Assembly: GCA_023447635.1 (NCBI GenBank)
Contig: JAEXNA010000221.1
Span: 4,063-68,062 of the forward strand
Source of the DNA: Vulcanimicrobiota bacterium
Lineage (GTDB): Bacteria > Vulcanimicrobiota > Xenobia > Xenobiales > JADMJV01
DNA: 64,000 bases
Direction: 5' to 3'
Shown here: in pieces, positions 3,352 through 47,527 of the stretch
Numbering within the stretch: position 1 is the first letter of the stretch
Layout of the letters: every line of letters starts with the position of its first letter
Notes under the pieces: model-generated
What the model was told of the DNA's origin: nothing
The model's input: only the letters and a program-made list of their open reading frames with translations
The model's database searches: none
Made by a program: the position numbers and the translations under genes

Positions 3352-4914
3352 CTACACCCAAAGGTCCCAGCGCTGGAACACCACCACGTGCACCGCCACG
3401 CAAAGGTTGGCCACCGCATGCGCCACCACCGCGTCGCTCAGCCGGTTGCGGAACGTTCCTGCGTAGGCAAAGGCCACCCCCGCCACCAACCCCGCGAACC
3501 AGGCCTGATGCAGCAACCCGAAGGCCAGAGAGCTGACCGCCACGGCCTTGAGCGGCAGCGAGTCGAACCGCACCGCCGTAAAGTCCTCCGCCTGCAACCG
3601 GCGCAGCAGATAGCCGCGGAAGGCCAACTCCTCGACCACCGGCACCAGAAACACCGAACCGATCAGGCGGGCGAGTAGCCATATCGCCGCGATATTCTCC
3701 GGTAAGTGGTGCCTGGGATCGTCCGCCTCGCCCACCGGGACTAGCCCAATCCACAGAACGTAGACCAGCACCCCTAGCGGTAAGGTACGAAAGTCCGGCG
3801 CGCTCCACAGCCCAAGCCTGGCGTACCGCCTGGCAAACCCCAGCAGCAGCCCCGCCACCAGCAGGCTCCGCACCGGGTACAGCACGTCCACCTCGGACAC
3901 GAACGCCGCGAACAGCAGGGTCAAGAATAGCTGCAGCGCCAGCGGCGCCAGGAACGGCAGCGAGGGAAACTCGTGGGCCTGTCCGCGAGAGCGATGGAAC
4001 AGCTTGAACTTTTCGACCACCGCCAGAAAGCCGAAGCCCAGGAAGACGAAGGCGATCCAGCCGCCCCGCGAGTGAAACGCCTCCAGCGCGACCTCGGGAG
4101 AAACGTAGGCGCCAAGTAGCAGTAAGCAGGCCAGCCGCACCCCGTTCCCCACATAGCTCAGACCCGCTGCCAGCGGCAGCATCACCAGAGCTCCGGGAAA
4201 ACGTAGCTCCCGACGACGCACGACCATATAGATAGTCAAAAAGACCAGAATCAGCCCGATCCCCTCGAATCCGGAACAGTGGTAGCCCACCTGCACGACG
4301 AAGGACGATAGGCCCATGGTGCCTTTGGTCGCGTCCACCTGGGGATGAAAACCCAGGACCCCAAGAACTCCCGTGCAGATCTTGATCGACCCGTTGATCA
4401 GGGCGTCCGAGGTCAGCGGACTTCGACCTCGCTCGGCGGCAAGGATCAGCAGATACACCAGCATCCCGTACCCGCCGTAACGCCGGGCCAGCGGCCACCA
4501 GATGCCGGGCGGCAGCAAACAGCTCAGCCAGCTGAGCCCAAAGGCGCCCCCCAGCAGGGTCAGGGCGCCCAGCCCCAGCGCGACCGACTCGGTCAGGCAG
4601 AGGAGAAGTAATCCGCGAAAGCTCAGCGCTAGCACTCCTGCCGACAGAACGTGCAGCGCCAGCGCCCGCCCAAAGCCGGGCCGGGGCGGCAGCGTCGGCA
4701 GGCGGCGCCACACGGCGTAGGCCGCCACGCCCGTGGTGACCGCCAGCAGCGCCAGCTTTAGCAGCGGCAGCTTGATGGTACGGTAGACTAGCCAGCGCCC
4801 CTCGATAGAAAGCTCGCTGATCAGGCCCAACTCTAAAGCGAGCAGCAGAAAGCAGCCCGCCCAGCGCAGCCAGGCGCGGCGTTGGTCCGGATCAGGGGCA
4901 AAGAGGCGGGACAT
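3352..4914 (-). CDS. xrtE: exosortase fused to CPBP/CAAX-type intramembrane protease (exosortase E/XrtE-like)
   Basis: Start taken at ATG 4914 (MSRLFAPDP...). The 130-aa N-terminal extension in the ORF track overlaps the divergent phosphatase gene. Polytopic protein with exosortase-like Cys motif (VQVGYHCSGFEG) followed by CPBP motifs EELAFRGYL, FGLLHQ, HAVANL. Adjacent to a VPEID-CTERM gene. Confidence 0.7.
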   Translation of the reverse strand: MSRLFAPDPDQRRAWLRWAGCFLLLALELGLISELSIEGRWLVYRTIKLPLLKLALLAVTTGVAAYAVWRRLPTLPPRPGFGRALALHVLSAGVLALSFRGLLLLCLTESVALGLGALTLLGGAFGLSWLSCLLPPGIWWPLARRYGGYGMLVYLLILAAERGRSPLTSDALINGSIKICTGVLGVLGFHPQVDATKGTMGLSSFVVQVGYHCSGFEGIGLILVFLTIYMVVRRRELRFPGALVMLPLAAGLSYVGNGVRLACLLLLGAYVSPEVALEAFHSRGGWIAFVFLGFGFLAVVEKFKLFHRSRGQAHEFPSLPFLAPLALQLFLTLLFAAFVSEVDVLYPVRSLLVAGLLLGFARRYARLGLWSAPDFRTLPLGVLVYVLWIGLVPVGEADDPRHHLPENIAAIWLLARLIGSVFLVPVVEELAFRGYLLRRLQAEDFTAVRFDSLPLKAVAVSSLAFGLLHQAWFAGLVAGVAFAYAGTFRNRLSDAVVAHAVANLCVAVHVVVFQRWDLWV

Positions 4915-4971: not shown

Positions 4972-5469
4972 GTGCCGGTGGGCAAGTCCGTCCTGGCAGG
5001 TGTTCCCCGGGCCAACGCTAAGCCGCCCGCCATGCCTCGCTTTTTCCCAGCGCTGCAGGTCTCGCTCGAGCTGTTTCGCGGGCCCCAGCCCGATTTTGAA
5101 GACATGCTGCACCTGAAATCCCACGGGGTCCGGGCGCTGGTCAACCTTCGCCGCGAAGCCACCGAAAGCGAATTCTTCGCCCGCCAGGCCGGGCTGGAAT
5201 ATCTGCACCTGGCGGTGGAAGACTGGAATATTCCGCAGGAAGGCCAGATCCGCGAATTTTTGCAGTTCCTGAATATTCCGCAGAATCGACCCGCCCTGAT
5301 CCATTGCGCCATGGGCGTAGGCAGAACCGGAACCTTCGTCGCCTGTTACAGAGTGGCCAAAGGTATGACCGCCGACGACGCCATCCGCATGACCAACGAC
5401 GAATCGCCCCTGCGCGGCGTGACCATGAACCGACTCCAGCAGGACTTCGTCCGCAGCTTCCGGCCCTGA
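4972..5469 (+). CDS. protein tyrosine / dual-specificity phosphatase (CX5R)
   Basis: HCAMGVGRTG P-loop (CX5R) signature. GTG start at 4972 per the ORF track; ATG at 5032 (MPRFFPAL) is an alternative start. Confidence 0.7.
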   Translation: MPVGKSVLAGVPRANAKPPAMPRFFPALQVSLELFRGPQPDFEDMLHLKSHGVRALVNLRREATESEFFARQAGLEYLHLAVEDWNIPQEGQIREFLQFLNIPQNRPALIHCAMGVGRTGTFVACYRVAKGMTADDAIRMTNDESPLRGVTMNRLQQDFVRSFRP

Positions 5470-5516
5470 CGCACTCCCAGATAAAGACCGTTTCTGAACC
5501 TAACGCCCTTCCGCCC

Positions 5517-7925
5517 TTGTCTTCTCTCAATCGACCCCGCTTCTGGCTCCACCACATCGGCCTGCTGGCCCCGCTGCTCTGCCTGGCCGGGACGGTCGCC
5601 GTCTACTCCACCGCCCTGAACCCCGGCCTCCCGCTGCTCCTGGCCAACGCGCTGGCCGCCCTATTCTGCGCCTGGCGGCTGCTCTCGTCCCGCCGTCCGT
5701 TCTACCATCCCGGGCTCGATATTTTGCTGGCCCTGGCCCTCTGGGCCGCCCTCTCGGCCACCACCGCGCTCGACCCTTATCTGGCCCAGCGCAGCCTGGC
5801 TACCGGGGTCGGCGGCTGCGGGCTGACCCTGGGCCTGGTGGTCGCCATCCGCTCTTCCAGGGACTGGAAGCTCGCCGCCTACGGGCTGGTCGGCTTCACC
5901 GCCCTGGCCTCGATAGCCGCCTGGCCCGCCGCCTTCGCCGTGGCGCGCCAGACCGGCCACCTGCCCGCCCTGACCGGCACCTACAACAACCCCGACGCTT
6001 TCTCCATCCTGCCCCTGAGCGGCTTCTGCCTCGGTTTCGGCCTGCTGGCCCGGCGACGCGGCGCCGGGACCGGTCTGATGCTGGCCCTGCTCGGGGTGCT
6101 GGCCCTGTCGCTGGCCGCCACCGGATGCCGCTCTGCCCTGCTGGGCGCAACGCTGGGACTGGGCCTCTCCTTCGCGCTTATGGCGACCCACCGCAGCCGC
6201 CGTCTCGCCAAGGCCCGCCCTCTGATGATGGCGCTGCCGATCGTGGTCGTGATGGCGCTGCTGCCGCTCTCGAACTTTGGCCTCTCCGGCCTGGACAAAA
6301 TCTCCCGCACCTTCAACGACGCCGCCTTGCGCAACGAAGCGACCCGCCTGGAAGTGGCCTACTACGGATGGCGCGCGGTAGCCCAGCACGCCGTGCTGGG
6401 CGCCGGACCCGGCTGCTTCGGCCTGGCCTATCAAACCGTCCGTCCCGACCCTCACCCCGACGACTACATCAATCTGGCCCACAACGACCATATCGAAATG
6501 GCGGTCGAACTGGGCTTCCCCGGTCTGCTGCTATGGGCAGCCGCGCTGGCCGCCGCTGCCCACAAAGCTTACGACGGGCTCCTGCACGGACGCCGCCCCG
6601 CCGAAGCTGCCGGCCTGCTGGCCGCCCTGGCCGCGCTGATCGTCTTCGCCTTCTTCAACTTCATCGTGAGCGAGCGCCCCTCGTTCTGGGTCCAGTGCTA
6701 CCTTCTGGGGTTGGCCTACGCCTTCCCCAGCGAGCGCTCGGCCCGCCCCGAACCCAAGCTCGCCCGCCTGCTCTTGACCTTGCCGCTGCTCGCCCTGGCG
6801 CTCTGGGGGGTCACCTTCGCAGCCCGCCTCCTGCAGGCCGACAGCTACGCCGCCACGGCGCGCGGGCAGGCCGAAGGGCTGCTCTTCGAAAGCTCCGCCG
6901 GCGCCTGGGACCAGGCTATCGCCCTGCAGCCCGAGCGCGCCGCCTTCCGCCAGTCGCGCGCCGAAGTCGCCCGCAAACTGGCCACCCTGGGCGTTTATAG
7001 CGAGGCGCCGGTGGTCGAACGCCAACTCCGCTCCGCCCTGCTGGCCAGCCCCGCCAACACCGGGGTGATGGTGCAGCTGGCCCTCTGGTTAGCCCAGAGG
7101 GGGGAAACCAAAGAGGCCAAAGCGCTCCTCGACCAGGCCTCGCGCCTGGCGCCCGGCAGCCCCATGCTGAAACGCCGACGTCAGGAGCTAGCGGTCGGCC
7201 AGGGCCGCTGGGCCGAAGCCGCCGCCCAGGCCTGGGCGGCCTACAAGACCACGGGCCAGGGCCTCACCTCTCTGGCCGAACTGGTCATCGCCGCCGAACT
7301 TGCCAACCCCGGCGCGGGCTGTGCCTTGCTTCGAGAGTGGACCCGAACCCCCAACGAGCGGTCGAGCCTTCTCTGGCAAGAGCTGTTCCGGCAGACCGAG
7401 ACCCGAAAACTTGGCGCCCCCCGGCTGAGTTTTGCCCTGCTCAGGGTCGAACTGTCCCCTACCGATCTGTGCGCCAAGCTGGCTCTGGCCCAGGCAGCGG
7501 CCCAAGGCCCGGGCGGGGTCGAGCAGCAGTTTCAGATCCTGGGCAAAGCGCTGGCCGAAGCCTCCCTGACCACGGACCGCTCGCCCTGCCTGGAACCCGC
7601 GCTCCTGCTTTGGACCAGCCGGGCCGTCGATCGGGGGCAAGTGGCCGCCGCCCAAGAGCGGCTGGGCGGGATTCTGCAGGACCAGCCCCGGCTCCACCGG
7701 GTCCGTCTGCGCCTGGCCGACCTGCTGGCGGTCCAGGGTCAACGCGCCGAAGCCACCGCCCTGCTCAAAGACGGCCTGAGCTTCGACAACAGCTCCGTCG
7801 ATCTGCACCTGGGGCTCGCCCGCCTTTACCGCGCCGGCGGCTCGGCCGACCTGGCCCGAGCCTACGCCAGGGATGCCCTACGCCTGGACCCTACCAGTCA
7901 GGAAGCCAAATCGCTGCTTAAATAG
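5517..7925 (+). CDS. O-antigen ligase (Wzy_C)-like polytopic membrane protein with C-terminal TPR repeats
   Basis: YINLAHNDHIEMAVELGFPGLLLW O-antigen-ligase signature, >=10 TM helices, then ~350 aa TPR-like C-terminus. The 5304 start in the track overlaps the phosphatase gene; TTG at 5517 (in frame) proposed. Confidence 0.6.
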   Translation: MSSLNRPRFWLHHIGLLAPLLCLAGTVAVYSTALNPGLPLLLANALAALFCAWRLLSSRRPFYHPGLDILLALALWAALSATTALDPYLAQRSLATGVGGCGLTLGLVVAIRSSRDWKLAAYGLVGFTALASIAAWPAAFAVARQTGHLPALTGTYNNPDAFSILPLSGFCLGFGLLARRRGAGTGLMLALLGVLALSLAATGCRSALLGATLGLGLSFALMATHRSRRLAKARPLMMALPIVVVMALLPLSNFGLSGLDKISRTFNDAALRNEATRLEVAYYGWRAVAQHAVLGAGPGCFGLAYQTVRPDPHPDDYINLAHNDHIEMAVELGFPGLLLWAAALAAAAHKAYDGLLHGRRPAEAAGLLAALAALIVFAFFNFIVSERPSFWVQCYLLGLAYAFPSERSARPEPKLARLLLTLPLLALALWGVTFAARLLQADSYAATARGQAEGLLFESSAGAWDQAIALQPERAAFRQSRAEVARKLATLGVYSEAPVVERQLRSALLASPANTGVMVQLALWLAQRGETKEAKALLDQASRLAPGSPMLKRRRQELAVGQGRWAEAAAQAWAAYKTTGQGLTSLAELVIAAELANPGAGCALLREWTRTPNERSSLLWQELFRQTETRKLGAPRLSFALLRVELSPTDLCAKLALAQAAAQGPGGVEQQFQILGKALAEASLTTDRSPCLEPALLLWTSRAVDRGQVAAAQERLGGILQDQPRLHRVRLRLADLLAVQGQRAEATALLKDGLSFDNSSVDLHLGLARLYRAGGSADLARAYARDALRLDPTSQEAKSLLK

Positions 7926-8024
7926 TTCAACAAGACTTATTCAAGGATGTACAAGACGTACACACCCTGGCATAAGCCAACACTAGCCCAACTCGTCTAA
8001 AAAGCCGCATCTTCGCCGACCACA

Positions 8025-8648
8025 ATGCTCAGCATGAAGAAACTTCTCTTCTGGCTGGCCTTGTGTGGAGCCGCCGCTGCTCAACCTGTTGTCTCTTCCG
8101 CACAACTCGACCAACTGGTCCTCCCCGTCCCTGACGGATGGTACCGCGTGCAAGACCCCACTCACGGGGACAAACTGGTTCTGGCCAGCGACGGCCCGGC
8201 CGACCGCCAGGCCCTGCTCCTGATCACCCGGGCGCCTGCCCAGAACCGCACCCTCGACGGCGTCCTGAAAGCGGAAAAGACCTACGTGGTCACCCGCATG
8301 AACGGCGTCCTGGGCACTACCGGACGCACCACCGTCGGGGAACTGCCGGCCGTTCAACTCGACTACAGCGGCGCCTCGACCGTGGCCGGCAACGGCCCTC
8401 GCGACTTCCAGCGCACGGTGATCCAGAAGGGCGACGACTTCTACATCTTGCAAGCCGTCGCGCCGGCCGGGGTACTCTCCGACCACAGCGCGACGCTGCA
8501 GGGCGTCTACGACGACCTCTCCTGGTCCGAGGAGAGCCTGCAAGACGCCGGGTCCGAGGCCGCTTCGATGGAAGAATCCGCCGTCGACTCCCCCGCGCCG
8601 TTGCCGGAACAGCCCGCCGAACCTGGTGGGGAAAGCGTAGGTCCGTGA
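8025..8648 (+). CDS. hypothetical secreted protein
   Basis: MKKLLFWLALCGAAAAQP signal peptide, acidic C-terminus; stop overlaps the next start (GTGA). Confidence 0.4.
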   Translation: MLSMKKLLFWLALCGAAAAQPVVSSAQLDQLVLPVPDGWYRVQDPTHGDKLVLASDGPADRQALLLITRAPAQNRTLDGVLKAEKTYVVTRMNGVLGTTGRTTVGELPAVQLDYSGASTVAGNGPRDFQRTVIQKGDDFYILQAVAPAGVLSDHSATLQGVYDDLSWSEESLQDAGSEAASMEESAVDSPAPLPEQPAEPGGESVGP

Positions 8649-9592
8649 GGGCCCGGGGCATCGTGGGGGTCACATGTCTCGGCTTGCTTTGCTTCGCCTA
8701 TCCAACTTTTGCCAACTCCGGGCCGCCCGGGGCGGTTCGCCAGGAGGCGGCCAGCGGTCAGGTGCTGGCCAGCCGTGACGGCCAGGTCTGGGCCGCGCTG
8801 CAGGCCCCGACCCTGCAGCCGGGCGATCGGGTTCGCACCGGACCCGACGGCCAGACTGTCCTCCACTTCTCCAGCGGCGACCGGATTCGCCTGGCCCCTG
8901 GTTCGGAACTGGTCTGGCAGTCGACCCGCTCGGGCCGGACCGAACTCGAACTGCAGCGAGGCCAGCTGTACGGCCAGGCCGCCGGTAACCTGCGGGTCGA
9001 TACCGCCCGCTCGCGCACCACGGCCTCGCGAGGCGAATTCTTCCTGCAAACTCAGACCGCAGGGGCCCGCCTGCAGGTGCTCGGCGGCAACGCCAGGCTG
9101 GTGTCCAAGGACGGCGACGCACCGCGCTATCCGGACCTGGGCCGCCTGCCTCCCGGCGTCGACGGACAAAAACTGCTGGGGCGACAGAACGCCACCGATC
9201 AGATGGTGGGCGACTTCGATCCCTCCGAAGACACCAGGCTGGCCGGGGGTCCCAGCAAGGGCAAGGACGCCGGGCCGCGCAAAGCGACCTCTAGCGAGGC
9301 TGTAGGCAGCTTTCACGAACTGCGACCCGATGCCGACATCGTGGCGCCCACTCCCCCCGCTCCGCCCGTTGTCCAGGCCACGCCACCGGCCGTGGCCTCT
9401 CCTCCGCCCACCGTGGCGGTGGCACCCGCCGCGGCCGTGGGGGGAGGCACCTCTCCGTTCCTTTTTGGAGGGATCGGAGGGCTGGCGCTGGTGGGAGTGC
9501 TGACCGGAGTAACCCCCGGCGGGGACGACGACAACGAGGTCACGGTGCCGCCGGCCGAAAACCCGCCCGTGCCCTCGCCCTCGCGGTCTTAG
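8645..9592 (+). CDS. FecR-domain protein with Pro/Ala-rich linker and Gly-rich hydrophobic C-terminal segment
   Basis: GTG 8645 in frame with the 8138 ORF, whose N-terminal 169 aa look non-coding. Signal-like start (GIVGVTCLGLLCFAYPTFANS). FecR-like GDRVRTGPDGQTVLHFSSGDRIRLAPGSEL. C-terminal PTPPAPPVV...FLFGGIGGLALVGVLTGV. Confidence 0.5.
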   Translation: MRARGIVGVTCLGLLCFAYPTFANSGPPGAVRQEAASGQVLASRDGQVWAALQAPTLQPGDRVRTGPDGQTVLHFSSGDRIRLAPGSELVWQSTRSGRTELELQRGQLYGQAAGNLRVDTARSRTTASRGEFFLQTQTAGARLQVLGGNARLVSKDGDAPRYPDLGRLPPGVDGQKLLGRQNATDQMVGDFDPSEDTRLAGGPSKGKDAGPRKATSSEAVGSFHELRPDADIVAPTPPAPPVVQATPPAVASPPPTVAVAPAAAVGGGTSPFLFGGIGGLALVGVLTGVTPGGDDDNEVTVPPAENPPVPSPSRS

Positions 9593-9602: not shown

Positions 9603-10502
9603 ATGCAACGTCGACAGTTTCTCAGCGGCCTCCTCGGCCTGGCCGGATGGGCTCTGACCGCTCAGGGAAGGGCGTTCGCCGCCGCCCAGAGCCTTCCGGG
9701 GCTCTCCCGGGTCGTCGGTAGCGACCTCGACTATCAAGCCGTCGAAGGCGATAGCCTGCTTTCCATCGCCCAGAGCCACGGGTTGGCCATCGAACACCTG
9801 GCCTTTGCCAACGGCTTCGCAGTGTCGGCCGCCCAGGTCGTCCCCGGCACCACTCTGCGCCTACCCAGACGTCGCATTCTGCCGCTCGATCCGCCGGCGG
9901 ACGGACTGGTGCTCAACGTCCCCGAACGGGGCCTGTACCGCTTCTCTCAGGGTGGGTTCCAGGAGTTCCTCCCGGTTGCCGTGGGCGCCCCGCCCGACAC
10001 CCTGACCCCCCTGGGTCAGCACACCGTGGTGGAAAAGGTGGTCGATCCTACCTGGTACCCGCCGTCCTGGGCGGCCGACCGTCGGCCCGTGCCGCCCGGC
10101 CCCGACAACCCTCTGGGCGACCGCTGGCTGGGCCTGTCCGCTCCCCGGGTCGGCATTCACGGCACGAACAACCCGATCAACGTCGGCGGGTCGGTCACCC
10201 ACGGCTGCATCCGCTGCTACCCCGACGACATCCGCCGCCTGTTCACCAACACCGCCGTCGGGACGACCGTCCGCATCGAATACGAAACGGCCAAATGGGG
10301 ACGGGACAGCAGTGGGACCCTCTATCTGGCCAACTTCCCGGACCTTTACGGCCGCTCGGACTCGGTAGCTCGAGCGGGCAAACTGCTGAAGGGAGGCCCC
10401 GCCCAGGCCCTTCTGAGCGACCCGAACTTCCGGACCAAGCTGCAGATGACCCTGGGCTTAGCCCTCGATCTCGACGCGGAACTAGGGCGAGTTCAGGGGT
10501 AA
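9603..10502 (+). CDS. L,D-transpeptidase (YkuD) with LysM domain, Tat-type signal
   Basis: RRQFLSGLLGLAG twin-arginine signal; LysM-like EGDSLLSIAQSHGLAIEHLAFANG; YkuD catalytic HGTNNP...GSVTHGCIRC. Confidence 0.8.
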   Translation: MQRRQFLSGLLGLAGWALTAQGRAFAAAQSLPGLSRVVGSDLDYQAVEGDSLLSIAQSHGLAIEHLAFANGFAVSAAQVVPGTTLRLPRRRILPLDPPADGLVLNVPERGLYRFSQGGFQEFLPVAVGAPPDTLTPLGQHTVVEKVVDPTWYPPSWAADRRPVPPGPDNPLGDRWLGLSAPRVGIHGTNNPINVGGSVTHGCIRCYPDDIRRLFTNTAVGTTVRIEYETAKWGRDSSGTLYLANFPDLYGRSDSVARAGKLLKGGPAQALLSDPNFRTKLQMTLGLALDLDAELGRVQG

Positions 10503-10780
10503 AAAGGCTTGACCAAAAGATGACCCTTCAGGCTAAAACTACGAACTATACCCTGCCCTTCCCTGGACACCAACCTGGACAAAACCGGATTCCGACCTGG
10601 AAATCTCCCAAATGGAGAAGCCCGGTCGACCCAGCGCCAACATCTACCCTGGTAGTAGTTGGGATAGGATCCAGCCGAGGGGTACCTCCCCGAGGATGTT
10701 CCGACCGCCCCCCAGGGACGGTGGGATACCGGACCGACGTTCCGTTGAATAGGGTGGGGAAGGACGGGGGGACCGGCACG

Positions 10781-11230
10781 CTAGGTGTCCTGGCTCCAAG
10801 AATAACTGGAAAGAATCTGAAAGGTATGTTGCTCCGCTTCCCCCGTCACGAACATCTCGCCCACCCTCAGCCAGGCGTGGGCCTCCAACCCTTCCTCGCT
10901 AGGATGGCGACGGACGCCCAGCGACAAGGTATGCGGCACGCCCTCCCGCTTCAGCAACGAGGCGGCCGCCAGGGCGCGATTCAGGCAGTTGGCGTTCCAG
11001 GGCACCCGGTCCGCCAACCCGTTCACCACCCTGGCGACCCGCTGCACCGCGACCGGATCGCTCGCGTCCGGCGCCGCCGGACCGCCCAGAACTCCCAGCC
11101 GACCGGACCAAAACCGGAACGGTAAGCTCAGCACCACAGCCCGCCACACCGCCAGCAGCAGCAGCGCCCGCAGCGCCATCGCTCGCTCGGGTCGGGGCAA
11201 AGCCCAAAATCTCTTCAAGGAACTCCCCAT
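10781..11230 (-). CDS. lasso-peptide B2-like transglutaminase-fold cysteine protease (cassette 1)
   Basis: NCLNRALAAASLLKREGVPHTLSLGVRR...EAHAWLRVGEMFVTGE: Cys...His(AHAW) pattern of lasso B2 / transglutaminase-like proteins. Start at ATG 11230 (MGSSLKRF) rather than 11299. Confidence 0.55.
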   Translation of the reverse strand: MGSSLKRFWALPRPERAMALRALLLLAVWRAVVLSLPFRFWSGRLGVLGGPAAPDASDPVAVQRVARVVNGLADRVPWNANCLNRALAAASLLKREGVPHTLSLGVRRHPSEEGLEAHAWLRVGEMFVTGEAEQHTFQILSSYSWSQDT

Positions 11231-12384
11231 TGAACCACCTTCTTCCCCAGGCGACGCCGGCCGACACCGCCACCGAGAACCTTCTCGCCGTACTGTCACG
11301 CCACGCCCCTGACCGCTCGTTCTCGTCCGCCGATTGGCGGGGGATAGAGCAGGCGGCTCGGCGCTATCGGGTAGCCGGGCTCACCCTCGAGCGGCTTCGC
11401 CGGCACGGCCTATCGGCCCCGGCCGAAATCGACGCCGCCCTGCGCGACGAAGGCCGCGCCCTGGCTGCTCGGGCCGCGGGCAACTGGTGGCTATTCGACG
11501 GGATAGCTGCCGCGCTCACCGCGGCGGACATCCCCTTCATCCGCCTCAAGGGGTCCCACCTGGCTCGCTGCGTCTACGAAAGCCCCAGCCACCGCTTCCA
11601 GCGCGATTTCGATATTCTGGTGCACAAAAAACATCTGAACCAAGCTCAGAGCCAGATCGAGGCCTTAGGGTTCTATCGCAGTCAGGATTTCGAAGGCTAC
11701 AACCTGACCTTCAAACGAGACGGCGTGCCTTTCAGCCTAGAGCTCCATTGGGACGTCCAGCGTCGGCCCTGGCTGTTCGACATAAAGGTCTCCGACCTGT
11801 GGCAACGAGCCGAGCCGGCTCCGGATGGCCAGGGACTGCGCCTTTCCCTGGAGGATGAGATCGCCTACCTTTGCCTGCACCTGTCCAAACATCGCTTTTG
11901 GAACGAAGTCATTCCGATGCTAGATATTTTAGAGCGGCTCCACGTCCAGGGAGAAAGAGTCTGCTACTCCTCTCTCAAGCGTCGGTTCGAAGATTGGCAC
12001 GCACGGAAACCCGCCGCGCTGGTCCTCTCGGTGCTCACGAAGCTTTTCCCTCGAGATACTCCGACCGAGCTTTCCCGGCTGCTCCCGCATCCTCCGTCGG
12101 CTCTCACGAACTACGCCTGCTGGCGTGTCAGCGCCCCGGACGATAGAAACTTAGAAGACCGCAAGCGCATGGTCCGAATCGCGACCTATCGCAAGCATCA
12201 GCGCCTTTGGTCCTCACTCCTGGACAGCGAACCAGGGAAGCCTCGGCGCTCTCGAGGAGAGAAAGTGGCACTGTTATTCGGCAAACTTGGGCGCCTGGGC
12301 CGCTCATTGACCCTGGCAGTTACCGGCGGCCGCCTCGAACGGACGCGCCTGTCGCTGGAAAAGGAGCTCTGCGAATGGTGCTAG
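11230..12384 (+). CDS. uncharacterised nucleotidyltransferase family protein (NTP_transf_5-like) of HprK-related cassettes
   Basis: TTG start in track. FDILVHKKHL (DxD-like) and a paralogue at 26961..28127 with GDLDLWL. Stop overlaps the kinase gene start by 10 nt. Confidence 0.5.
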   Translation: MNHLLPQATPADTATENLLAVLSRHAPDRSFSSADWRGIEQAARRYRVAGLTLERLRRHGLSAPAEIDAALRDEGRALAARAAGNWWLFDGIAAALTAADIPFIRLKGSHLARCVYESPSHRFQRDFDILVHKKHLNQAQSQIEALGFYRSQDFEGYNLTFKRDGVPFSLELHWDVQRRPWLFDIKVSDLWQRAEPAPDGQGLRLSLEDEIAYLCLHLSKHRFWNEVIPMLDILERLHVQGERVCYSSLKRRFEDWHARKPAALVLSVLTKLFPRDTPTELSRLLPHPPSALTNYACWRVSAPDDRNLEDRKRMVRIATYRKHQRLWSSLLDSEPGKPRRSRGEKVALLFGKLGRLGRSLTLAVTGGRLERTRLSLEKELCEWC

Positions 12385-13316
12385 TCACGCGTTCCACCTA
12401 TCGCGCCTTCGGGCGGAATATCTCCAGCGACCTCGACCTCCCCGAACTTCAGCCCTCCGAGGCGTCCCGGGCCTCGACCGACCTCACCATCAGCCTGGCC
12501 TCGCTCGGCGCCCCCGGGCCCCAGGCGGGCGAACCGGGGCTGCTTTACCCCTGCGGCCCCGACGCCTATCGCCTGGACGTGGCCGATGTCGGCAGCTACC
12601 TGATTCGGCAGAGCGGCCGGGAGATTCTGGTCGATCCGCTGCCCGGGGCAGCACCCGAAGTCGTCCGTATCTTTTTGCTCGGCTCGGCGCTGGGCACAGC
12701 GCTGCATCTTTCCGAAGGTCTGGCGCTGCACGCCAGCGCGGTCGAAATCGACGGTCGGGCCGTCCTTTTTGTGGGCGACTGCGGCGCCGGCAAATCGACC
12801 ACCGCCGCCGCCTTCGTCCAGCGCGGCTACCGAATGGTGGCCGACGACGTGGCCTATCTCACCCTCGAGTCGGGCCGCCCTCTGGTCCACCAGGGTGTGA
12901 AACGGATCAAGCTCTGGCAGACCTCGGTCGACGCCCTGGACCTGGAAGGGGCCGACCTGACGGGCGTGCACCCCGACTACCCTCAGCGTCGCTCGCTGGC
13001 CGTGGCCGACCGCCAGACCAGCGCGGTCCTGCTCGGCGCCGTCGTCGTCCTGACGCCCGGCCCGGAGAGGTCGGTTCGCCTCGAAAGGCTGCACGGATTA
13101 GCCGCGCTGTCGGCCCTGGTGCAGAACACCTATCGCCCCTCCTTTGTCGCCACCCTGGGGCAAGGCGCCGCCCATATGGCCAAGGTGGCCACCATGGCCC
13201 AGGGCCTGGCCGTCTACCGACTTCACCGCCCGGACCAGACCATGTCCATCGACCCCGTCGTCCAGGCCACCATCACCCAATTCAGACACAGCCCAGAAAA
13301 GCGAGGAACCCGATGA
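12375..13316 (+). CDS. HPr kinase/phosphorylase-related P-loop kinase (HprK-like RiPP kinase), cassette 1
   Basis: ATG 12375 preceded by AAGGAG. P-loop HASAVEIDGRAVLFVGDCGAGKSTTAAAF, typical of HprK C-terminal-domain homologues. Confidence 0.65.
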   Translation: MVLVTRSTYRAFGRNISSDLDLPELQPSEASRASTDLTISLASLGAPGPQAGEPGLLYPCGPDAYRLDVADVGSYLIRQSGREILVDPLPGAAPEVVRIFLLGSALGTALHLSEGLALHASAVEIDGRAVLFVGDCGAGKSTTAAAFVQRGYRMVADDVAYLTLESGRPLVHQGVKRIKLWQTSVDALDLEGADLTGVHPDYPQRRSLAVADRQTSAVLLGAVVVLTPGPERSVRLERLHGLAALSALVQNTYRPSFVATLGQGAAHMAKVATMAQGLAVYRLHRPDQTMSIDPVVQATITQFRHSPEKRGTR

Positions 13317-13591
13317 ACGCCACTGCCAACACCTTGACCTTGACCCGAACCGAAGTCCCCCGCTGCGACCTGGACGGCGAAACCGTCCTGTTCAGCCCGC
13401 TCGACGGCTCCTACTTCGGCCTCAACGCCGTCAGTTCGCGCATCTGGGACCTGCTGGAAACCCCCACCACCCTGACCGCCATCTGCGCAGCCCTGGGCAA
13501 AGAGTTCGATGTCGACCCCACCGTCTGCGAAGAACAGACCGTTGCCTTCCTCAGCCGCCTCGAAGCCGCCGGTCTTCTGCGCCGCGCCTAG
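13313..13591 (+). CDS. PqqD-family peptide chaperone (RiPP recognition element / lasso B1-like), cassette 1
   Basis: 92 aa; ...GETVLFSPLDGSYFGLNAVSSRIWDLLETPTTLTAICAAL...AFLSRLEAAGLL matches the PqqD/RRE pattern; start overlaps kinase stop (ATGA). Confidence 0.6.
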   Translation: MNATANTLTLTRTEVPRCDLDGETVLFSPLDGSYFGLNAVSSRIWDLLETPTTLTAICAALGKEFDVDPTVCEEQTVAFLSRLEAAGLLRRA

Positions 13592-13674
13592 CGCCGCACT
13601 CACCGCCTCAAAATCTCGAAACTCTCCGTGGAAAAAAGAAAGGAAACGCGCCGGACCCGGCGCTGGAAATAACC

Positions 13675-13752
13675 ATGAAACGCACCTGGATCACCCCCGA
13701 AATCACCAAACTCGAAATCAAAGAGACCGCCACTCACCCGATCGGCTCCTAG
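13675..13752 (+). CDS. candidate small peptide (25 aa) with lasso-leader-like motif, ends in Ser
   Basis: MKRTWITPEITKLEIKETATHPIGS. W-x-x-P-x-I resembles the YxxPxL leader motif; C-terminal Ser; only 6 residues after the putative T(-2)A site. Weak RBS. Confidence 0.2.
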   Translation: MKRTWITPEITKLEIKETATHPIGS

Positions 13753-13766
13753 ATGACGAGAAAAAG

Positions 13767-13797
13767 AATAAGGACGGCTGACTCAGCCGTCCTTATT
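13767..13797 (-). terminator. rho-independent terminator (14-bp perfect stem, 3-nt loop); T-tract on minus strand, terminates the FecR-like gene; may act bidirectionally
   Basis: AATAAGGACGGCTG-act-CAGCCGTCCTTATT; minus strand continues CTTTTTCTCGTC; 21 nt after the stop of 13819..14655(-). Confidence 0.5.
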
Positions 13798-13818
13798 CTG
13801 CGAGCAAGGTTCGTAGGG

Positions 13819-14655
13819 CTAGTTGTGAGCCGAACAGCAAGCGTCGCGACGCAGGATGCTATTCGGCGAATAGATAGCGGCGTCGACGTCCTGGATCGTT
13901 GCGCCGGCCAGGGTCTCGCCGGTCACGGTGCCGCTGCTATCACCGCCGCCACCCGCCAGAAGGGCCAGCAGACCGGCTCCGAACGAACCGCCCAGCGCCG
14001 GGAACAAGGAAAAGCCGGAACCGCTCGAGGCCGCGCTCGACGAAGAAGCGGACTTCTTCTTGGGCGCTTTGCCCTTGGCACCAGAGGTGGCCTTGTCAGC
14101 GGCCGGCACATGCTGCTCGGTCGAGGCATAGGCCAGGGCCAGCGAAGCGCCGTCAACGCCGGCCGGCAGTTCGCCGGCCAGCGGGTACTCGGCGGACGAA
14201 CCGTCCAGTCCCACCATCTTCGGCTTCCCCTCGATCACGCTCAGCGAGGCGCCATCGCGGTCGGTCGAGACGATGAACTCTCCGCTCTCGGCAACCGTGC
14301 TAGAGCCCGTCGTATGAATCTCGACCGGGGCGGTGGCTCGCGCCATCACGCGACCGCGGTGCAACAAGACTTCGGCGCTTTGCGAACGACCGACGACCAA
14401 CTCGCTGTTCGGGGCCATGCGTACCATGTTGCCGTTGTCGAAGGCCAGGGTCAGTCCACCCTCTCCGGTGCGCAGGGTGCTGCCTTCGGCGATCGGGCCA
14501 GCCTGCAAGCGGCTCCACGAGCCTTCCCCGGTCTGCCGCAGCGCCTGTCCGCTAACCGACTGGGCCACACAGCCGTGAGCCTCGTCGGCCGCAAACGAGA
14601 TCTGGCCCGCACAGAAGGTGGCGATGGCGATTCCTGCGATAATTCTACGATTCAT
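13819..14655 (-). CDS. FecR-domain secreted protein with Lys/Ser-rich linker and Gly-rich hydrophobic C-terminal segment (paralogue of 8645..9592)
   Basis: Signal peptide MNRRIIAGIAIATFCAGQISFA; FecR-like GSTLRTGEGGLTLAFDNGNMVRMAPNSEL; C-terminus ...SGFSLFPALGGSFGAGLLALLAGGGGDSSG.... Confidence 0.5.
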   Translation of the reverse strand: MNRRIIAGIAIATFCAGQISFAADEAHGCVAQSVSGQALRQTGEGSWSRLQAGPIAEGSTLRTGEGGLTLAFDNGNMVRMAPNSELVVGRSQSAEVLLHRGRVMARATAPVEIHTTGSSTVAESGEFIVSTDRDGASLSVIEGKPKMVGLDGSSAEYPLAGELPAGVDGASLALAYASTEQHVPAADKATSGAKGKAPKKKSASSSSAASSGSGFSLFPALGGSFGAGLLALLAGGGGDSSGTVTGETLAGATIQDVDAAIYSPNSILRRDACCSAHN

Positions 14656-14742
14656 GGTGTTCTCCCCAGGTAGCGGTACAAAGTCGTTCCGGTCGCATTC
14701 TTGTGCTCGCGAGACGCTCCTGCAGAAATAAGAGCTTCAAGC

Positions 14743-17220
14743 TTATTTCGTCGCCTTCTTGCCGGCTTTCAGCAGTCGAAGCCGCGACGCCGCCGTTCGG
14801 TTCTGCGGCTCCAGACGCAGCGTCGTCCGGTAATAGTTCAGCGCCAGCTCGCGAGAACCCAGCGACTCGTACACCTCGGCCAGCGCTTGATTTAGCTCGA
14901 CCGCGTCCGGGTTGCTCGCCAGCCCCTCCCGCAGCACCGAGATGGCGTCGGCCCCACGCTCTTCCTTCAGGTAAAGCTTGGCAAGCTCGGCGCGAACCAG
15001 CGTGTCGCCGGGATGCTCCTCGACGTGCATGGCCAGGCGGTCTCGCACTCGCCCAGCCTTGCCAGCGCTTATCCCCAGCGCCGCCCAACGCACCAGCAGC
15101 CGGTCCTCGCAATAAGAATGGTCCGCCGTCGAAGTCTGCGCCTGCGAAACCAGCAAGTCCAGAGCGGAATATTCCGCGCTCTCCCCAGAAAGCTGGCCTT
15201 TGGCCGCCGCCAAGTCGACCTTGGCGCAAAGGTCCTCTGGCACCAGACGAACTTTCAGCCCTAGAAGCGACGCCGCAGGCTCCCAGAGCTTGCGTTCCTG
15301 GGCCAGCGCGACGCCTTCGTCCAGGACGACCGAGAAGTCTTCGGCTGACCGGCCCGAGAGCCCCAGAGCGTAGCGCGCTGTGCTTCCCGGCTCTTTGATT
15401 TCGGCCGCCACCAACAGCTGGGCCAGAGTCATCTTGCGGCGGCGGTCGTTCCCAGGCGACTCCAGAAGCGCAACCGCGCGGGCGAAATCCCCCTCTTGCA
15501 TCGCCACCGCCGCCTGACGTTGGGCAACCAGCGCGCTGCCGGGGGCGACCGCCTTGGCCCGCTCCAGCCATGGCGTCGCCTCCCCCGGGCGGCCGGCCCG
15601 GGCCAGAATATCGGCCAGCTGCAGATACACCGCCAGATTTTCCGGGCTATGCTCCAGCCCGGCCTCCAGCTGAAGTAGCGCCCGATCGATGTAGTCTTTG
15701 TCTTCCGTGAAAGCGGCCAGCTTCCGATAGTTCTCCGCCGCCTGCTGCCGGGTCAACGTTCGTTCCGGCATCCAGCGCACCGAAGACTCCATCATCGTCG
15801 CCGCTTGGTCCAGATCCAGCGCCTCGATCTGCACTAACGCCTGGGCTCGAAACCCCTCGCTGACCAGCGCCCTCACCCCGAAGACGGCCGTCCATCCTCC
15901 AAGGATCAGCGCGACCACGCCCATCCCAACCGCTTGATATCGTCGGACCGCTGCCGGCTCCCGCGGGGGAAGCGCCCAGATCAGGCTGAACAAGGCCACT
16001 TCCCACCACAAGGTCGGCAGCTTGCTCACGATAAAATTAAAGCAGCTAAAGACCGCGGTCGCCACCAGCGCCATAGCCATCCCGCAGGCCTCGAACGAGC
16101 GCGAGCGGTCGCGGTAGCACTGAGTCAGACGATGGCAGGCGCTCACCCAGAGGGCCAGCCACAGCAACGCTCCTACTATCCCGGTCTCGACCGCCGTTTC
16201 GATAAAATCGTTATGAGCCAGGTCGAAATGGTCGTTAAAACCGGGCTGGCGCACCTTCTGGTAGGCCATCCCAAACGCCGCCGGGCCGCAGCCGAACACG
16301 GGGTAGAGCAAGGCTCCTTTGGGGCCGTCGCGCAGCAACTGCAGGCGCTGGGTTTCCTGGCTGATAATGTCGGTGTTCAGGCTGCGCAAGATGCGCTCGA
16401 GCCCCATCAGTTCGAACTGGGTTAGTAAGACCAGACCAAAGAGCACCGACATTCCCGCCCCGGCTAGAAGAAGCTGGTCTCGGCGCGAGTTCTTTCTGGC
16501 CACCAGCAAGGCCGCAAAGACGACGGACCCGACGGCGACCCCTAAAAAAGCCGCTCGGCAGCCCGTGGCCACCAGGGTCGCAGCGAGAACGACACCTTCG
16601 ACCAGCAGCAGGCGCCACAAAGCCTTCGACCGCTCTTTCAGCAGAGCGCAGGCCACGGTCAAACCGAACATCGGAATCACCGAGAACAGGTCACGATTCT
16701 CGAAAACGCCGGAAACGTAGCGAAAGCGGCCGTAGTCCGCCGCCTCGCGAAACGCCTCCGGCCAGGCCGCCAAACTGATCATGGTCGCCAGGAGCACGAA
16801 CAGATGGGCGCAGCGCCGCCACTCCCGACCGCTGACGATGCAGCTTCGCGCGACCAGAACAAAAGCACCGGCCGCACACAGCGAAGCCACAGCGCGCTCA
16901 CTAAGGTAGGCGTCCAGACTCTGCAGCCCGCTGACCGCGCACCAGACCAGGTAGAGAAAGAACAACGGCTGACCGGGGTGAAAGGCCCGAGCGTTCCCTG
17001 CACCACGAAAGGTGGCGATCGCTGCCAGCATGGACAAGACTCCGCCCGCCATCAGCGGCAGGCCCGGAACCAGATGGGTACTGTGAATCGTGATCGGCAG
17101 CGCCAAGAGCGCCAGGCAGACCCACCAGGTCTTCGGCGCTCGAAGCCGGTCCCAGAAGCCTTCCCCTCCCTCGCCGCCGCGGGGGCTACGGCTTCGGCGC
17201 GAGCGGGTCACGGGGCCCAC
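14743..17220 (-). CDS. O-antigen ligase (Wzy_C)-like membrane protein with C-terminal TPR repeats (paralogue of 5517..7925)
   Basis: FDLAHNDFIETAVETGIVGALLWL signature, polytopic N-terminal half, TPR-like C-terminal half. Confidence 0.6.
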   Translation of the reverse strand: MGPVTRSRRSRSPRGGEGGEGFWDRLRAPKTWWVCLALLALPITIHSTHLVPGLPLMAGGVLSMLAAIATFRGAGNARAFHPGQPLFFLYLVWCAVSGLQSLDAYLSERAVASLCAAGAFVLVARSCIVSGREWRRCAHLFVLLATMISLAAWPEAFREAADYGRFRYVSGVFENRDLFSVIPMFGLTVACALLKERSKALWRLLLVEGVVLAATLVATGCRAAFLGVAVGSVVFAALLVARKNSRRDQLLLAGAGMSVLFGLVLLTQFELMGLERILRSLNTDIISQETQRLQLLRDGPKGALLYPVFGCGPAAFGMAYQKVRQPGFNDHFDLAHNDFIETAVETGIVGALLWLALWVSACHRLTQCYRDRSRSFEACGMAMALVATAVFSCFNFIVSKLPTLWWEVALFSLIWALPPREPAAVRRYQAVGMGVVALILGGWTAVFGVRALVSEGFRAQALVQIEALDLDQAATMMESSVRWMPERTLTRQQAAENYRKLAAFTEDKDYIDRALLQLEAGLEHSPENLAVYLQLADILARAGRPGEATPWLERAKAVAPGSALVAQRQAAVAMQEGDFARAVALLESPGNDRRRKMTLAQLLVAAEIKEPGSTARYALGLSGRSAEDFSVVLDEGVALAQERKLWEPAASLLGLKVRLVPEDLCAKVDLAAAKGQLSGESAEYSALDLLVSQAQTSTADHSYCEDRLLVRWAALGISAGKAGRVRDRLAMHVEEHPGDTLVRAELAKLYLKEERGADAISVLREGLASNPDAVELNQALAEVYESLGSRELALNYYRTTLRLEPQNRTAASRLRLLKAGKKATK

Positions 17221-26109: not shown

Positions 26110-26961
26110 ATGAGTCTCGTCTCCGTCCTCATACCTTGCTACGGCCACCAGTCCACCCTGCCGCGGGCGCTGTTCTCGTTGGTCTTGCAAGACTTTGCCC
26201 AGTGGGAAGCCATTGTGGTCGACGACGGGTCCGAGCCCCCTATCGATCGGGAACGGCTCCCCTCCGACCCCCGAATCCGCCTGCTACGTCTGCCCACCAA
26301 TCAAGGGCGGGGCAAAGCCAGTCAGGTCGCTCTGCAAGCCTCGGTGGGGCGCTACGTAGCCTTTCTCGACGCCGACGACTGGTATCTGCCGGACAAACTT
26401 TCTCGGCAGGTGGCCTTTCTGGATTCCAACCCCGACGTCGACTGCGTTGCCGGAACCCTCGGCTGTGTCTCCCGAGACGGCGGGGACCTTCGCGAAATGC
26501 TCGGCCCCCGCCCCGGGATCCATCACCACACTCCGACCGGGTCCATCAGGCTTCCCTTCGCCGCCTGCCTGGTCCGCGGAAAAAGAGCTCGACAGGTGGG
26601 ATTCGACCCCGCCTTCCGGCGGGGCCAGGACCGCGACTTCCTTCACCGCCTGCTGGTCGGTCGCTCTTACGCCGTCGTACCCGGGATAGAATATGTCTAT
26701 CACACCGGGGTCAGCTTTGCCCTCAGTTCCGTCCAGGAAGGGCTGCGTTATCGACTGCAGTTTTATCGGCGCCACCTGCGGAACAACCCGGGCTGGGCCT
26801 TGCTCCAGATCGGGGCCACCGTGGCTCGGCTGGTCCTCTATCCTATCTTCCATCGGCTCGGACGGTGGCAAGGTCACGTCGAAAGAAACCTTCGCCCCGC
26901 GCCTACCGAGGTCCAACAGCAATACCGGGCAGCCCTGGCGGCCCTAGAGCGGCACTTGTGA
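26110..26961 (+). CDS. glycosyltransferase family 2
   Basis: VSVLIPCYG...VDDGS...FLDADD DxD-type GT-A motifs. Confidence 0.75.
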   Translation: MSLVSVLIPCYGHQSTLPRALFSLVLQDFAQWEAIVVDDGSEPPIDRERLPSDPRIRLLRLPTNQGRGKASQVALQASVGRYVAFLDADDWYLPDKLSRQVAFLDSNPDVDCVAGTLGCVSRDGGDLREMLGPRPGIHHHTPTGSIRLPFAACLVRGKRARQVGFDPAFRRGQDRDFLHRLLVGRSYAVVPGIEYVYHTGVSFALSSVQEGLRYRLQFYRRHLRNNPGWALLQIGATVARLVLYPIFHRLGRWQGHVERNLRPAPTEVQQQYRAALAALERHL

Positions 26962-29679: not shown

Positions 29680-30075
29680 AACGTCAGCTCCTGAAAGGCG
29701 GCCTGCTCCGCCCGACCCACCACCGCCCGACCATGAACCTCCAACCAGGCGTGGGCTCCAAACGCCTCCCCCGCTTTGACACCCAGGACCAAACGACAGG
29801 GGATGGCACGAACGCGCAAGAGCAGCGCGGCGGTCAGGGCCCGTTCCAGACATCGGGGCGACCAGGGGGCCCATCGTCCCGCCCGCTCTGTTGCCCGTCC
29901 AACCCGATCGGCCAGTTGCAGCAAGGCGGGGCTTAGACCCGTGGCGGCTCTCTCGGGGACCGTCAGGCGACGGACCTGCGACTGCCAGGGCGTGGCTCGG
30001 AACCACAGGCACACACCAAGTCCGACGAGGAACGCCTCGAAGGTCAAAAGTAGGTCCGAAAGAGAGGGCAGCCGA
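29667..30075 (-). CDS. lasso-peptide B2-like transglutaminase-fold protease, cassette 2
   Basis: RCLERALTAALLLRVRAIPCRLVLGVKAGEAFGAHAWLEVHGRAVVG; probable GTG start ~30075 (VSRLPSLSDLLLTFEAF...). Divergent from the cyclase gene. Confidence 0.55.
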
Positions 30076-30161
30076 GACACTTCTCTCCATTTGTCCTTGC
30101 CCGAGACTTCACCCTTCCCTCCGGGCAGGCGTCGGCATAGGGACAGCCCGAATCGGCGCTT

Positions 30162-31871: not shown

Positions 31872-31999
31872 CCGACCCTAACTACAAAAAACCCGTCCTC
31901 AAAGCCTACGGGAGCCTCAAAGAGCAGACTCTGGCCGTACGAAACGGTGTCGGCATCCGCGACAGCTCGAAGGGCAACCCGAACAACAAAACCGGGTAA
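31868..31999 (+). CDS. candidate lasso-peptide precursor (43 aa)
   Basis: MTDPNYKKPVLKAYGSLKEQTLAVRNGVGIRDSSKGNPNNKTG. Leader matches Y-x2-P-x-L-x3-G-x5-T-x exactly (Y6,P9,L11,G15,T21). Strong RBS GAGGGAG 4 nt upstream; start overlaps cyclase stop (ATGA). Confidence 0.45.
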   Translation: MTDPNYKKPVLKAYGSLKEQTLAVRNGVGIRDSSKGNPNNKTG

Positions 32000-32008
32000 A
32001 CCCGCGAC

Positions 32009-32983: not shown

Positions 32984-32996
32984 GGAACAGCACTGC

Positions 32997-33257: not shown

Positions 33258-33263
33258 ACGCCG

Positions 33264-41478: not shown

Positions 41479-41495
41479 AGCCGCTGACGCATGTG

Positions 41496-43528: not shown

Positions 43529-43555
43529 AGGTCGAGAAGAAACCTCACCTTCTGA

Positions 43556-45980: not shown

Positions 45981-46073
45981 CTCTTGCTCTCCAAATGGGC
46001 TTGGCTTTCACGAAAGACTTGAAGCCCTGTACGACAAAGTGCGCTCGGCCAGACGTGCTAAGCACGCTTAGCC

Positions 46074-47426: not shown

Positions 47427-47527
47427 ACCGGGCAGTTCTCGGCACCGACGAAGCGCCCTCCAAGGGTTTAAGAAACCATAATGTTCTCCCGACAGGCGTC
47501 ATTACCACGAATTGATTGCAGAATGAC

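Follow-up and report, generated by a model that had tools for sequence, protein, structure and literature searches.

We analysed a 64-kb window of DNA from a Vulcanimicrobiota bacterium (GenBank assembly GCA_023447635.1, contig JAEXNA010000221.1, positions 4,063 to 68,062 of the forward strand; "the window" means this whole stretch of 64,000 nucleotides, and positions are counted from its first letter). It contains a gene set, here called cassette A, that encodes a lasso-type B2 leader peptidase (B2_a), an NTP_transf_5 nucleotidyltransferase-like enzyme (NTP_a), an HprK-like peptide kinase (Kin_a) and a discrete recognition element for peptides that are made on the ribosome and modified after translation (RiPP recognition element, RRE) of the lasso B1 type (PqqD_a), with a 25-codon open reading frame (ORF), pepA, beside them. 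Our interpretation, to which we give a probability of roughly 55%, is that cassette A would be a self-contained, cyclase-less offshoot of the phosphorylated (paeninodin-type) lasso peptide pathway, making a short linear peptide. The gene content, conservation and selection, the homology of pepA to precursor genes, and the absence of both a ring acceptor and a local cyclase are observed. A full lasso-type gene cluster, cluster B, is located about 12 kb downstream of cassette A; an earlier note on this DNA (the original prediction) had put the distance at about 15 kb.

Gene content of cassette A and the precursor gene pepA

The plus-strand genes NTP_a, Kin_a and PqqD_a overlap by 10 and 4 nt and therefore look like one operon, of which NTP_a is the first gene (Table 1). 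B2_a is divergent from the operon, and one base is common to the start codons of B2_a and NTP_a; the B2_a start at 11230 is backed by a Shine-Dalgarno-like site (AAGGTGG) and by N-terminal homology to an orthologue on a related contig, L086. A spacer of 83 nt separates PqqD_a from pepA, the translation of which is MKRTWITPEITKLEIKETATHPIGS. The original prediction had reported these five genes without an AsnB-like cyclase or ABC gene; all five are at the positions it gave, with family profiles in agreement, and hidden Markov model (HMM) and tblastn searches concur on the absences. Specifically, searches with family HMMs, and with three related cyclases as tblastn queries, found no second cyclase in the window, the sole match being at about 30.4-30.9 kb, and no cyclase remnant at 8-18 kb. 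An assembly gap hiding a cyclase, which had also been raised, was ruled out, in that the window contains no N letters and synteny is the same in L002, a related contig with a kinase 73% identical to Kin_a and a cassette from which the cyclase is likewise absent. No exporter gene was found within cassette A, the nearest ABC genes being at 27937-30090 (in cluster B) and 39670-41478, and no signal-peptidase domain was recorded in the cassette A genes or in their neighbours over about 10 kb on each side. Rfam and tRNA scans of the window gave no matches.

The enzymes were assigned to families and inspected for conserved residues. B2_a matched Pfam Transglut_core3 (2.2e-22) and NCBIfam lasso_biosyn_B2 (1.7e-22, 80 bits against a cut-off of 33), and it retains the family-conserved Cys (WNANCLNRA) and His (EAHAWL). 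NTP_a matched its Pfam family at 2.7e-39 and retains the conserved K107-G108, D126-x-D128, H173, H217 and D232; a sequence search of the PDB found no solved relative, and an AlphaFold model made from a two-sequence alignment was unusable (mean pLDDT 48.7). Kin_a matched Hpr_kinase_C (2e-10), and its P-loop, the conservation of which the original prediction had marked for checking, is conserved (GDCGAGKST). Kin_a residues H119, G134, G137, G139, K140, S141, D157 and D158 correspond, with equal spacing, to the motif of BsfK and other lasso-precursor kinases (PMC10368454). PqqD_a matched PqqD (2.8e-19) with its conserved core retained. With respect to the HPr-rel-A system, which pairs a TIGR04352 kinase with a TIGR04353 PqqD protein, PqqD_a qualifies (39.5 bits against a cut-off of 35), whereas Kin_a does not (49 bits against a cut-off of 200).

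To evaluate pepA, a leader HMM was built from 27 leaders at other kinase loci, with the window and L002 left out. In a six-frame search of the whole window the sole hit was pepA (14.8 bits, E = 0.002), the runner-up scoring 6.9 bits, and in a six-frame search of L002 the HMM matched the orthologous ORF (E = 7e-5). The resemblance of the predicted pepA leader to lasso-type leaders exceeds chance, and the WxxPxI leader-like, Ser-ending 25-residue peptide of the original prediction is borne out by the HMM match and by conservation in L002. The motif residues are W5-x-x-P8-x-I10, T18 at position -2 and the C-terminal S25.

The core was read in a register counted from the 15th residue after the leader Trp (W+15). 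In this register 26 of the 27 related precursors have an Asp or Glu, the ring acceptor, at core position 7-9, which bears the register out; 25 of the 27 end in Ser, and the cores of these relatives are 13-47 residues long. In contrast, the pepA core is THPIGS in the window and TDPIGS in L002, six residues that lack the ring acceptor. Therefore, with so short a core and no Asp or Glu at position 7-9, no ring can form, in agreement with the earlier view that the core is too short for a lasso.

The L002 orthologue of pepA, MKRTWIAPELTKISIKETATDPIGS, is at the equivalent place. Five synonymous third-position changes separate the 3′ halves of the two genes, four in the core (the T, P, G and S codons) and one in the preceding Ala codon, and the stop codon is TAG in the window and TAA in L002. 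The amino acid replacements are mostly conservative, the C-terminal PIGS is invariant in the two sequences, and the ratio of nonsynonymous to synonymous substitution rates (dN/dS) is 0.30, whereas the spacer around pepA has mostly diverged. As judged from sequence, pepA is a real precursor gene, homologous to genuine precursors. It is not called by gene callers and was absent from an exact look-up in a collection of 15 billion proteins.

Two structured elements flank pepA. The 17-nt A-rich block upstream (AAGAAAGGAAACGCGCC, the first 17 nt of its element) is identical in L002, where the stem of the adjoining hairpin is kept and the loop differs; read on the minus strand, the element is a hairpin followed by a T-run. 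It may be a transcript stabiliser, a ribosome-binding context or a minus-strand terminator. The downstream hairpin starts 12 nt beyond the pepA stop codon, is common to the convergent FecR gene and is likely to be a bidirectional terminator.

Selection on the enzymes was assessed by comparing the window with L002, between which synonymous divergence is about 0.5-1.3 per site. The dN/dS values were 0.24 for B2_a, 0.24 for NTP_a, 0.25 for Kin_a and 0.37 for PqqD_a, and 0.14-0.35 for flanking genes. No frameshifts or internal stops were found in the cassette A genes, and the translationally coupled gene overlaps of the operon are retained in L002. All four enzymes are under purifying selection and look functional.

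Table 1. Positions in the window of cassette A, cluster B and other features discussed in the text
Feature	Position	Strand	Description
B2_a	10781-11230	minus	149-aa leader peptidase of lasso type, a transglutaminase-like Cys protease; Transglut_core3, lasso_biosyn_B2
NTP_a	11230-12384	plus	NTP_transf_5 nucleotidyltransferase-like enzyme; PF14907
Kin_a	12375-13316	plus	HprK-like peptide kinase; Hpr_kinase_C
PqqD_a	13313-13591	plus	Discrete RRE, lasso B1 type; PqqD
A-rich block and GC hairpin	13636-13663		AAGAAAGGAAAC GCGCCGGACCCGGCGC; 12 nt upstream of pepA
pepA	13675-13752	plus	25-codon ORF
pepA leader	13675-13731	plus	MKRTWITPEITKLEIKETA; WxxPxI, Thr at -2; leader HMM
pepA core and stop codon	13732-13752	plus	THPIGS; 6 residues, C-terminal Ser, no Asp/Glu at ring position
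16-bp hairpin	13765-13799		Between convergent pepA and FecR genes; stem kept in L002
Cluster B	26110-34175	both	Full lasso-type; GT2, NTP_transf_5, ABC (minus), B2 (minus), AsnB-like cyclase, precursor, PRMT-like methyltransferase, PqqD, kinase
Cluster B AsnB-like cyclase	30162-31871
Cluster B precursor pepB	31868-31999		43 aa
Cluster B PRMT-like methyltransferase	32009-32983
Exosortase	3352-4914	minus	CAAX-type protease fusion; exosortase E (VPEID-CTERM system), 212 bits, above the cut-off (150)
Upstream Wzy_C-TPR and FecR module	5304-9592	plus
Downstream Wzy_C-TPR and FecR module	13819-17220	minus

Relatives of cassette A and comparison with known systems

Kinases more than 50% identical to Kin_a numbered only three among 5.8 billion clustered proteins: those of the window, of L002 and of a 2.4-kb contig ending inside PqqD. 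The search included JGI data, and all three clade members came from Logan assemblies. We also examined 80 loci with relatives of Kin_a, all at 39% kinase identity or less, most of which have adjoining precursors with the leader W-x-x-P-E-[LIV]-x-x-[LI]. Kinases of the nearest outgroups (39-41% identity) belong to lasso clusters that are complete, having a cyclase, B2 and PqqD as well as precursors that end in Ser, such as that of locus L088, the 3′ part of which encodes WIAPVVAKVQAGDAE followed by AGANTSEGGIAGS. Therefore, cassette A is derived from a cluster of the phosphorylated-lasso kind, from which cyclase, exporter and the ring portion of the core have disappeared. The proteins of cassette A and cluster B are 27-41% identical, and so the two gene sets are old paralogues.

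In the L002 genome, cluster B is on the same contig as cassette A (locus L084). A third relative, represented by L085 and L086, has a cluster B without an adjacent B2 gene (L085 8168-11701), and neither a second NTP transferase, kinase or PqqD, nor pepA, nor the B2 of cluster B (B2_b) was found there. A lone B2 on L086 (16339-17110) is 48% identical to B2_a and 35% identical to B2_b; it sits beside a fragment of YkuD, the gene that is also next to B2_a in the window. The L085/L086 locus has been rearranged, and its gene set indicates that the NTP_a-Kin_a-PqqD_a-pepA operon is dispensable for cluster B and that the B2_a lineage is separable from this operon.

L020, from a metagenome-assembled genome (MAG) of Pseudomonadota, appears to be another, independent instance in which cyclase and acceptor were both lost: here a precursor gene (9669-9842, minus strand) is directly beside kinase (9863-10921) and PqqD (10934-11227) genes. 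The 3′ part of the precursor gene encodes WVRPEVRRMKAGDAE followed by TLSPLGFFFAS, a putative 11-residue core that ends in Ser and contains no Asp or Glu. In L038, the closest relative of L020, with kinases 64% identical, a cyclase is next to the kinase where L020 has the precursor. No cyclase remnant was detectable in L020, the contig of which stops 1 kb past PqqD, so that the remainder of the cluster is unseen. In three cyclase-less B2-kinase-PqqD loci (L011, L014 and L025), no precursor was found by motif or HMM.

Linear Polyphosphorylated Peptides (LPP) of Bacillota, encoded by lppA-K-B-S-D-N in Paenibacillus alginolyticus (Popov et al., Nat Commun 2026, PMC13381572), have been called linear analogues of phosphorylated lasso peptides and were stated to be restricted to Bacillota. 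In Paenibacillus, cyclase-less kinase/RRE/NTP-transferase clusters that lie next to lasso clusters inside capsule loci were shown to yield linear phosphopeptides; LPP clusters often adjoin paeninodin-like lasso clusters inside such loci, and a Trp or Tyr residue in the leader separates the LPP and lasso pathways (PMC13381572). Cassette A has in common with LPP clusters an RRE, an HprK-like kinase and an NTP transferase without a cyclase, a [Y/W]xxPx[LIV] precursor leader, and a kinase-bearing lasso cluster alongside in a polysaccharide locus, here cluster B 12 kb off. The findings of Popov et al. in Bacillota agree with the suggestion of the original prediction that the kinase, PqqD and nucleotidyltransferase are a functional unit in their own right where a cyclase is absent; B2_a is separable from this unit. 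The co-resident precursors also differ in the aromatic leader residue, although the assignment is reversed: pepA has WxxPxI, and the lasso precursor of cluster B has YxxPxL.

The differences from LPP are as follows. The LPP peptidase is LppS, an archaeal-type SpI/SipW-like enzyme, whereas that of cassette A is a lasso B2 cysteine protease, and the LPP core set includes an MsbA-like exporter that cassette A lacks. LPP precursors are 35-200 residues long and are phosphorylated on Ser3, whereas pepA has 25 residues and a six-residue core with a C-terminal Ser and no core Ser3. Relative to the LPP motif YxxPxVLxHQxIxFETxxS, pepA has W for Y, and its E-T is two residues nearer the aromatic residue. 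The best solved relatives of PqqD_a are the lasso RREs PbaB1 (9X90, 1.4e-10) and TbiB1 (1.9e-8), with a further match to the solved lasso B1 protein 5V1U, whereas LppB (9X8Z) was matched at only 4.8e-4. Finally, the host locus of cassette A is an exosortase-type exopolysaccharide (EPS) locus, in contrast to the restriction described for LPP. These differences point to an independent, convergent loss of the cyclase. Because the peptidase, exporter and precursor motif of LPP are lacking and the RRE is of the lasso type, cassette A is placed outside the LPP family, and it is best described as resembling LPP in its predicted working, as a convergent variant that would be B2-dependent, with a minimal core, outside Bacillota.

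The RRE of cluster B, PqqD_b, is closest to TbiB1 (1e-16), whereas PqqD_a is closest to the W-binding PbaB1. At the position of PbaB1 Q79, PqqD_a has Gln and PqqD_b has Asp, the Tyr-binding type. These affinities fit an insulation of W and Y pathways, a point that is suggestive only, in that across 40 other RREs the discriminating residues fail to follow the W/Y division; W leaders occur there with Asp as well as with Glu, and we dropped these residues as a firm argument.

With the phosphorylated lasso peptide systems (paeninodin PadeK, ThcoK, SyanK and pseudomycoidin PsmK/PsmN), cassette A shares the split B1/B2 proteins, an HprK-like kinase with H...GxxGxGKS...DD and an NTP_transf_5 enzyme, and pepA shares the WxxP leader, a small residue at -1, Thr at -2 and a C-terminal Ser, which is the known phosphosite in those systems; the outgroup kinases nearest to Kin_a are likewise from clusters of this kind. 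Cassette A differs in having no cyclase, ABC exporter or Asp/Glu acceptor, and a core of six residues rather than at least 13; therefore, neither a lasso nor a branched-cyclic product is possible from the short, acceptor-less pepA core. The Bsf cluster of Bradymonas sediminis (BsfK/BsfB1/BsfB2; PMC10368454) provides a precedent for a leader-requiring kinase stimulated by B1 and for release by B1 and B2. Bsf is, however, a full lasso cluster, and the BsfK target is Ser3 of the ring, which resembles cluster B more than cassette A. Our literature search found nothing relevant on HprK-related kinases or HPr-rel-A, on PF14907, or on lasso peptides with an exosortase.

Linear analogues of phosphorylated lasso peptides have been known only since 2026, and were reported as Bacillota-only and dependent on a signal-peptidase-type enzyme. 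Cassette A would add the same outcome outside Bacillota, with the cyclase lost and the kinase, RRE and NTP transferase kept beside a lasso cluster in a polysaccharide locus; the lasso B2 peptidase is retained and the core is down to six residues. The cassette would be a Gram-negative counterpart of LPP. L020 shows a matching coupling of cyclase loss with ring-acceptor loss in a second lineage. The predicted hexapeptide should be far easier to identify than the 45-residue LPP core, and so small a product could help to settle what NTP_transf_5 enzymes of the PsmN/LppN type add to phospho-serine and what role such peptides have in capsule and EPS loci.

Proposed pathway and rival explanations

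Each chemical step of the pathway is modelled on homologues. The pepA gene would be translated as a 25-residue precursor, and PqqD_a would bind its WxxPxI leader. Kin_a, using the leader complex, would then add a phosphate, or perhaps several, to the Ser25 side chain. HprK-like kinases act on the leader-bearing precursor before cleavage, in all the earlier cases on a C-terminal Ser, and B1 stimulates the lasso-precursor kinase (PMC10368454). NTP_a may add a further group, a hexose or a nucleotide, to the Ser25 phosphate, as PsmN, also an NTP_transf_5 enzyme, puts a hexose on phospho-Ser (PMC9266682). B2_a, aided by PqqD_a, would cut after Ala19, with Thr at -2, to give T-H-P-I-G-pSer; in vitro, B1 together with B2 frees a linear (phospho)core when no cyclase is present (PMC10368454). 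The predicted [M+H]+ values are 611.315 for THPIGS, 691.281 with one phosphate and 853.334 with phosphate and a hexose, and 2288.268 for the leader set free.

The setting, in an exosortase/EPS locus with a full lasso-type cluster, suggests that the product is tied to surface polysaccharide or biofilm biology. A more specific idea, which we regard as speculative and rather improbable, is that the phospho-Ser of the hexapeptide would be a sugar attachment point for NTP_transf_5 and EPS enzymes, and that a peptide-phosphate-glycan conjugate would prime, cap or signal in exosortase-dependent EPS production. If this were true, kinase-type lasso and linear RiPPs would be a general and so far unrecognised part of polysaccharide loci in Gram-positive and Gram-negative bacteria.

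Several observations weigh against a self-contained pathway that makes a linear peptide. The Shine-Dalgarno sequence of pepA is weak (GGAA at -11 to -8), and pepA is carried by only two sequences, the third clade member being the 2.4-kb contig. B2_a may not be dedicated to pepA, because its orthologue in L085/L086 probably serves cluster B there. Cassette A has no exporter. The chemistry of PsmN is unsettled (PMC9266682), and the NTP-transferase activity of LppN could not be shown (PMC13381572). In addition, about 10 related loci without a nearby cyclase have precursors that retain the acceptor; therefore, a missing local cyclase is by itself weak evidence, and the acceptor-less short core is the telling feature.

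Cassette A could instead be an accessory of cluster B, as the original prediction had also proposed, with B2_a, Kin_a and NTP_a acting on the cluster B precursor or lasso product and pepA being a decoy or regulatory leader that titrates the RRE or tunes activity. Several facts speak for it: both gene sets belong to a single EPS locus and have stayed together in the L002 genome, cluster B has the ABC transporter that cassette A lacks, the only B2 on the contig of the third relative is of the B2_a type and near a cluster B without its own B2, and RREs outside Bacillota can be promiscuous (PMC13381572). However, the window and L084 each have a cluster B already equipped with a B2, a PqqD, a kinase and an NTP transferase of its own, and the third relative has cluster B without Kin_a, NTP_a and PqqD_a. 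Moreover, pepB ends in NKTG, whereas relatives of Kin_a accompany Ser-ending precursors, and the pepA core beyond the leader is conserved as protein through synonymous changes, which would be needless for a pure leader decoy. We therefore consider action on the product of the other cluster, or a decoy role, unlikely, and of the options first put forward we favour a linear peptide, given that pepA is conserved, is homologous to genuine precursors and has an acceptor-less core. A somewhat fainter chance is given to pepA being a scaffold, on the C-terminal Ser of which phosphorylation would be followed by nucleotidyl or glycosyl transfer, so that a serine-derived molecule or phospho-sugar would be passed on or cleaved and the hexapeptide would not be the end product. 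The very short core with its invariant C-terminal PIGS, a kinase and nucleotidyltransferase pair typical of activation chemistry, and the many sugar-handling enzymes of the locus would fit, and in the fosfazinomycin pathway, which relies on a nucleotidyltransferase for ligation, a small molecule is assembled at the C-terminus of a 22-residue precursor (PMC13622209). On the other hand, no cassette A enzyme is predicted to free a C-terminal residue, B2 enzymes cleave at the leader-core junction, and all characterised homologues of the Kin_a family leave phospho-Ser on the peptide.

A degenerating duplicate, the last of the earlier options, would make cassette A the inactive and disappearing remains of a second lasso cluster after loss of its cyclase and most of its core. 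Although the cyclase, exporter and most of the core are indeed missing, the clade is rare (the three kinases above) and the operon is wholly lost in the third relative, we reject this as very improbable, because dN/dS has remained at 0.24-0.37 for the four genes, and pepA as well, over about one synonymous substitution per site. The genes contain no frameshifts or internal stops, all of the conserved catalytic and binding residues are kept, the coupled overlaps persist in L002, no cyclase pseudogene is left, and the identity of 27-41% to the cluster B paralogues likewise speaks against a degenerating copy.

Cluster B and the exopolysaccharide locus

The cluster B precursor, pepB (also at L084 11707-11838 and L085 11698-11832), has a classical YxxPxL leader with T(-2). 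Its conserved Asp is at core position 10 rather than 7-9, and it ends in a conserved NKTG rather than Ser despite the kinase of the cluster. A conserved SKG Ser in pepB and the PRMT-like methyltransferase suggest an unusual tailoring or ring size.

The window as a whole is an EPS locus, with an exosortase E/CAAX-protease fusion, Wzy_C-TPR and FecR-domain proteins, glycosyltransferases, a tyrosine autokinase, a chain-length determinant, UDP-sugar dehydrogenases and a Wza-like exporter (Poly_export). Cassette A and its YkuD neighbour are flanked by inverted paralogous Wzy_C-TPR and FecR modules (Table 1), an arrangement also present in L002. Across the EPS gene block at 38000-52000, the GC content drops from about 63% to 50-55%. 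The genes of this block encode ABC, GT4, GT2 and pyruvyl transferase proteins, two UDP-sugar dehydrogenases, an AT3-SGNH acyltransferase and the Wza-like exporter, and this part of the locus may have been acquired horizontally or may vary between serotypes.

Among the other kinase loci, L031 (8762-12574, from an Anaerolineae MAG) combines three W-leader precursors in tandem with a kinase, a sulfotransferase, PqqD and B2; a cyclase is absent within 8-9 kb, yet the cores retain Glu8. Several Allosphingosinicella loci (L079, L081) consist of precursor and kinase only, and clusters of this family are often fragmented. Polysaccharide genes often surround kinase-type lasso clusters, as in 10 of the 80 kinase loci, in Acidobacteriota, Sphingomonadales and others; examples are L047 (6606-18073) and L089 (7619-11346), and the genes include GT4, flippase, sulfotransferase, Bac_transf, UDP-glucose dehydrogenase and tyrosine kinase. 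These surroundings echo the capsule-locus association reported for Bacilli.

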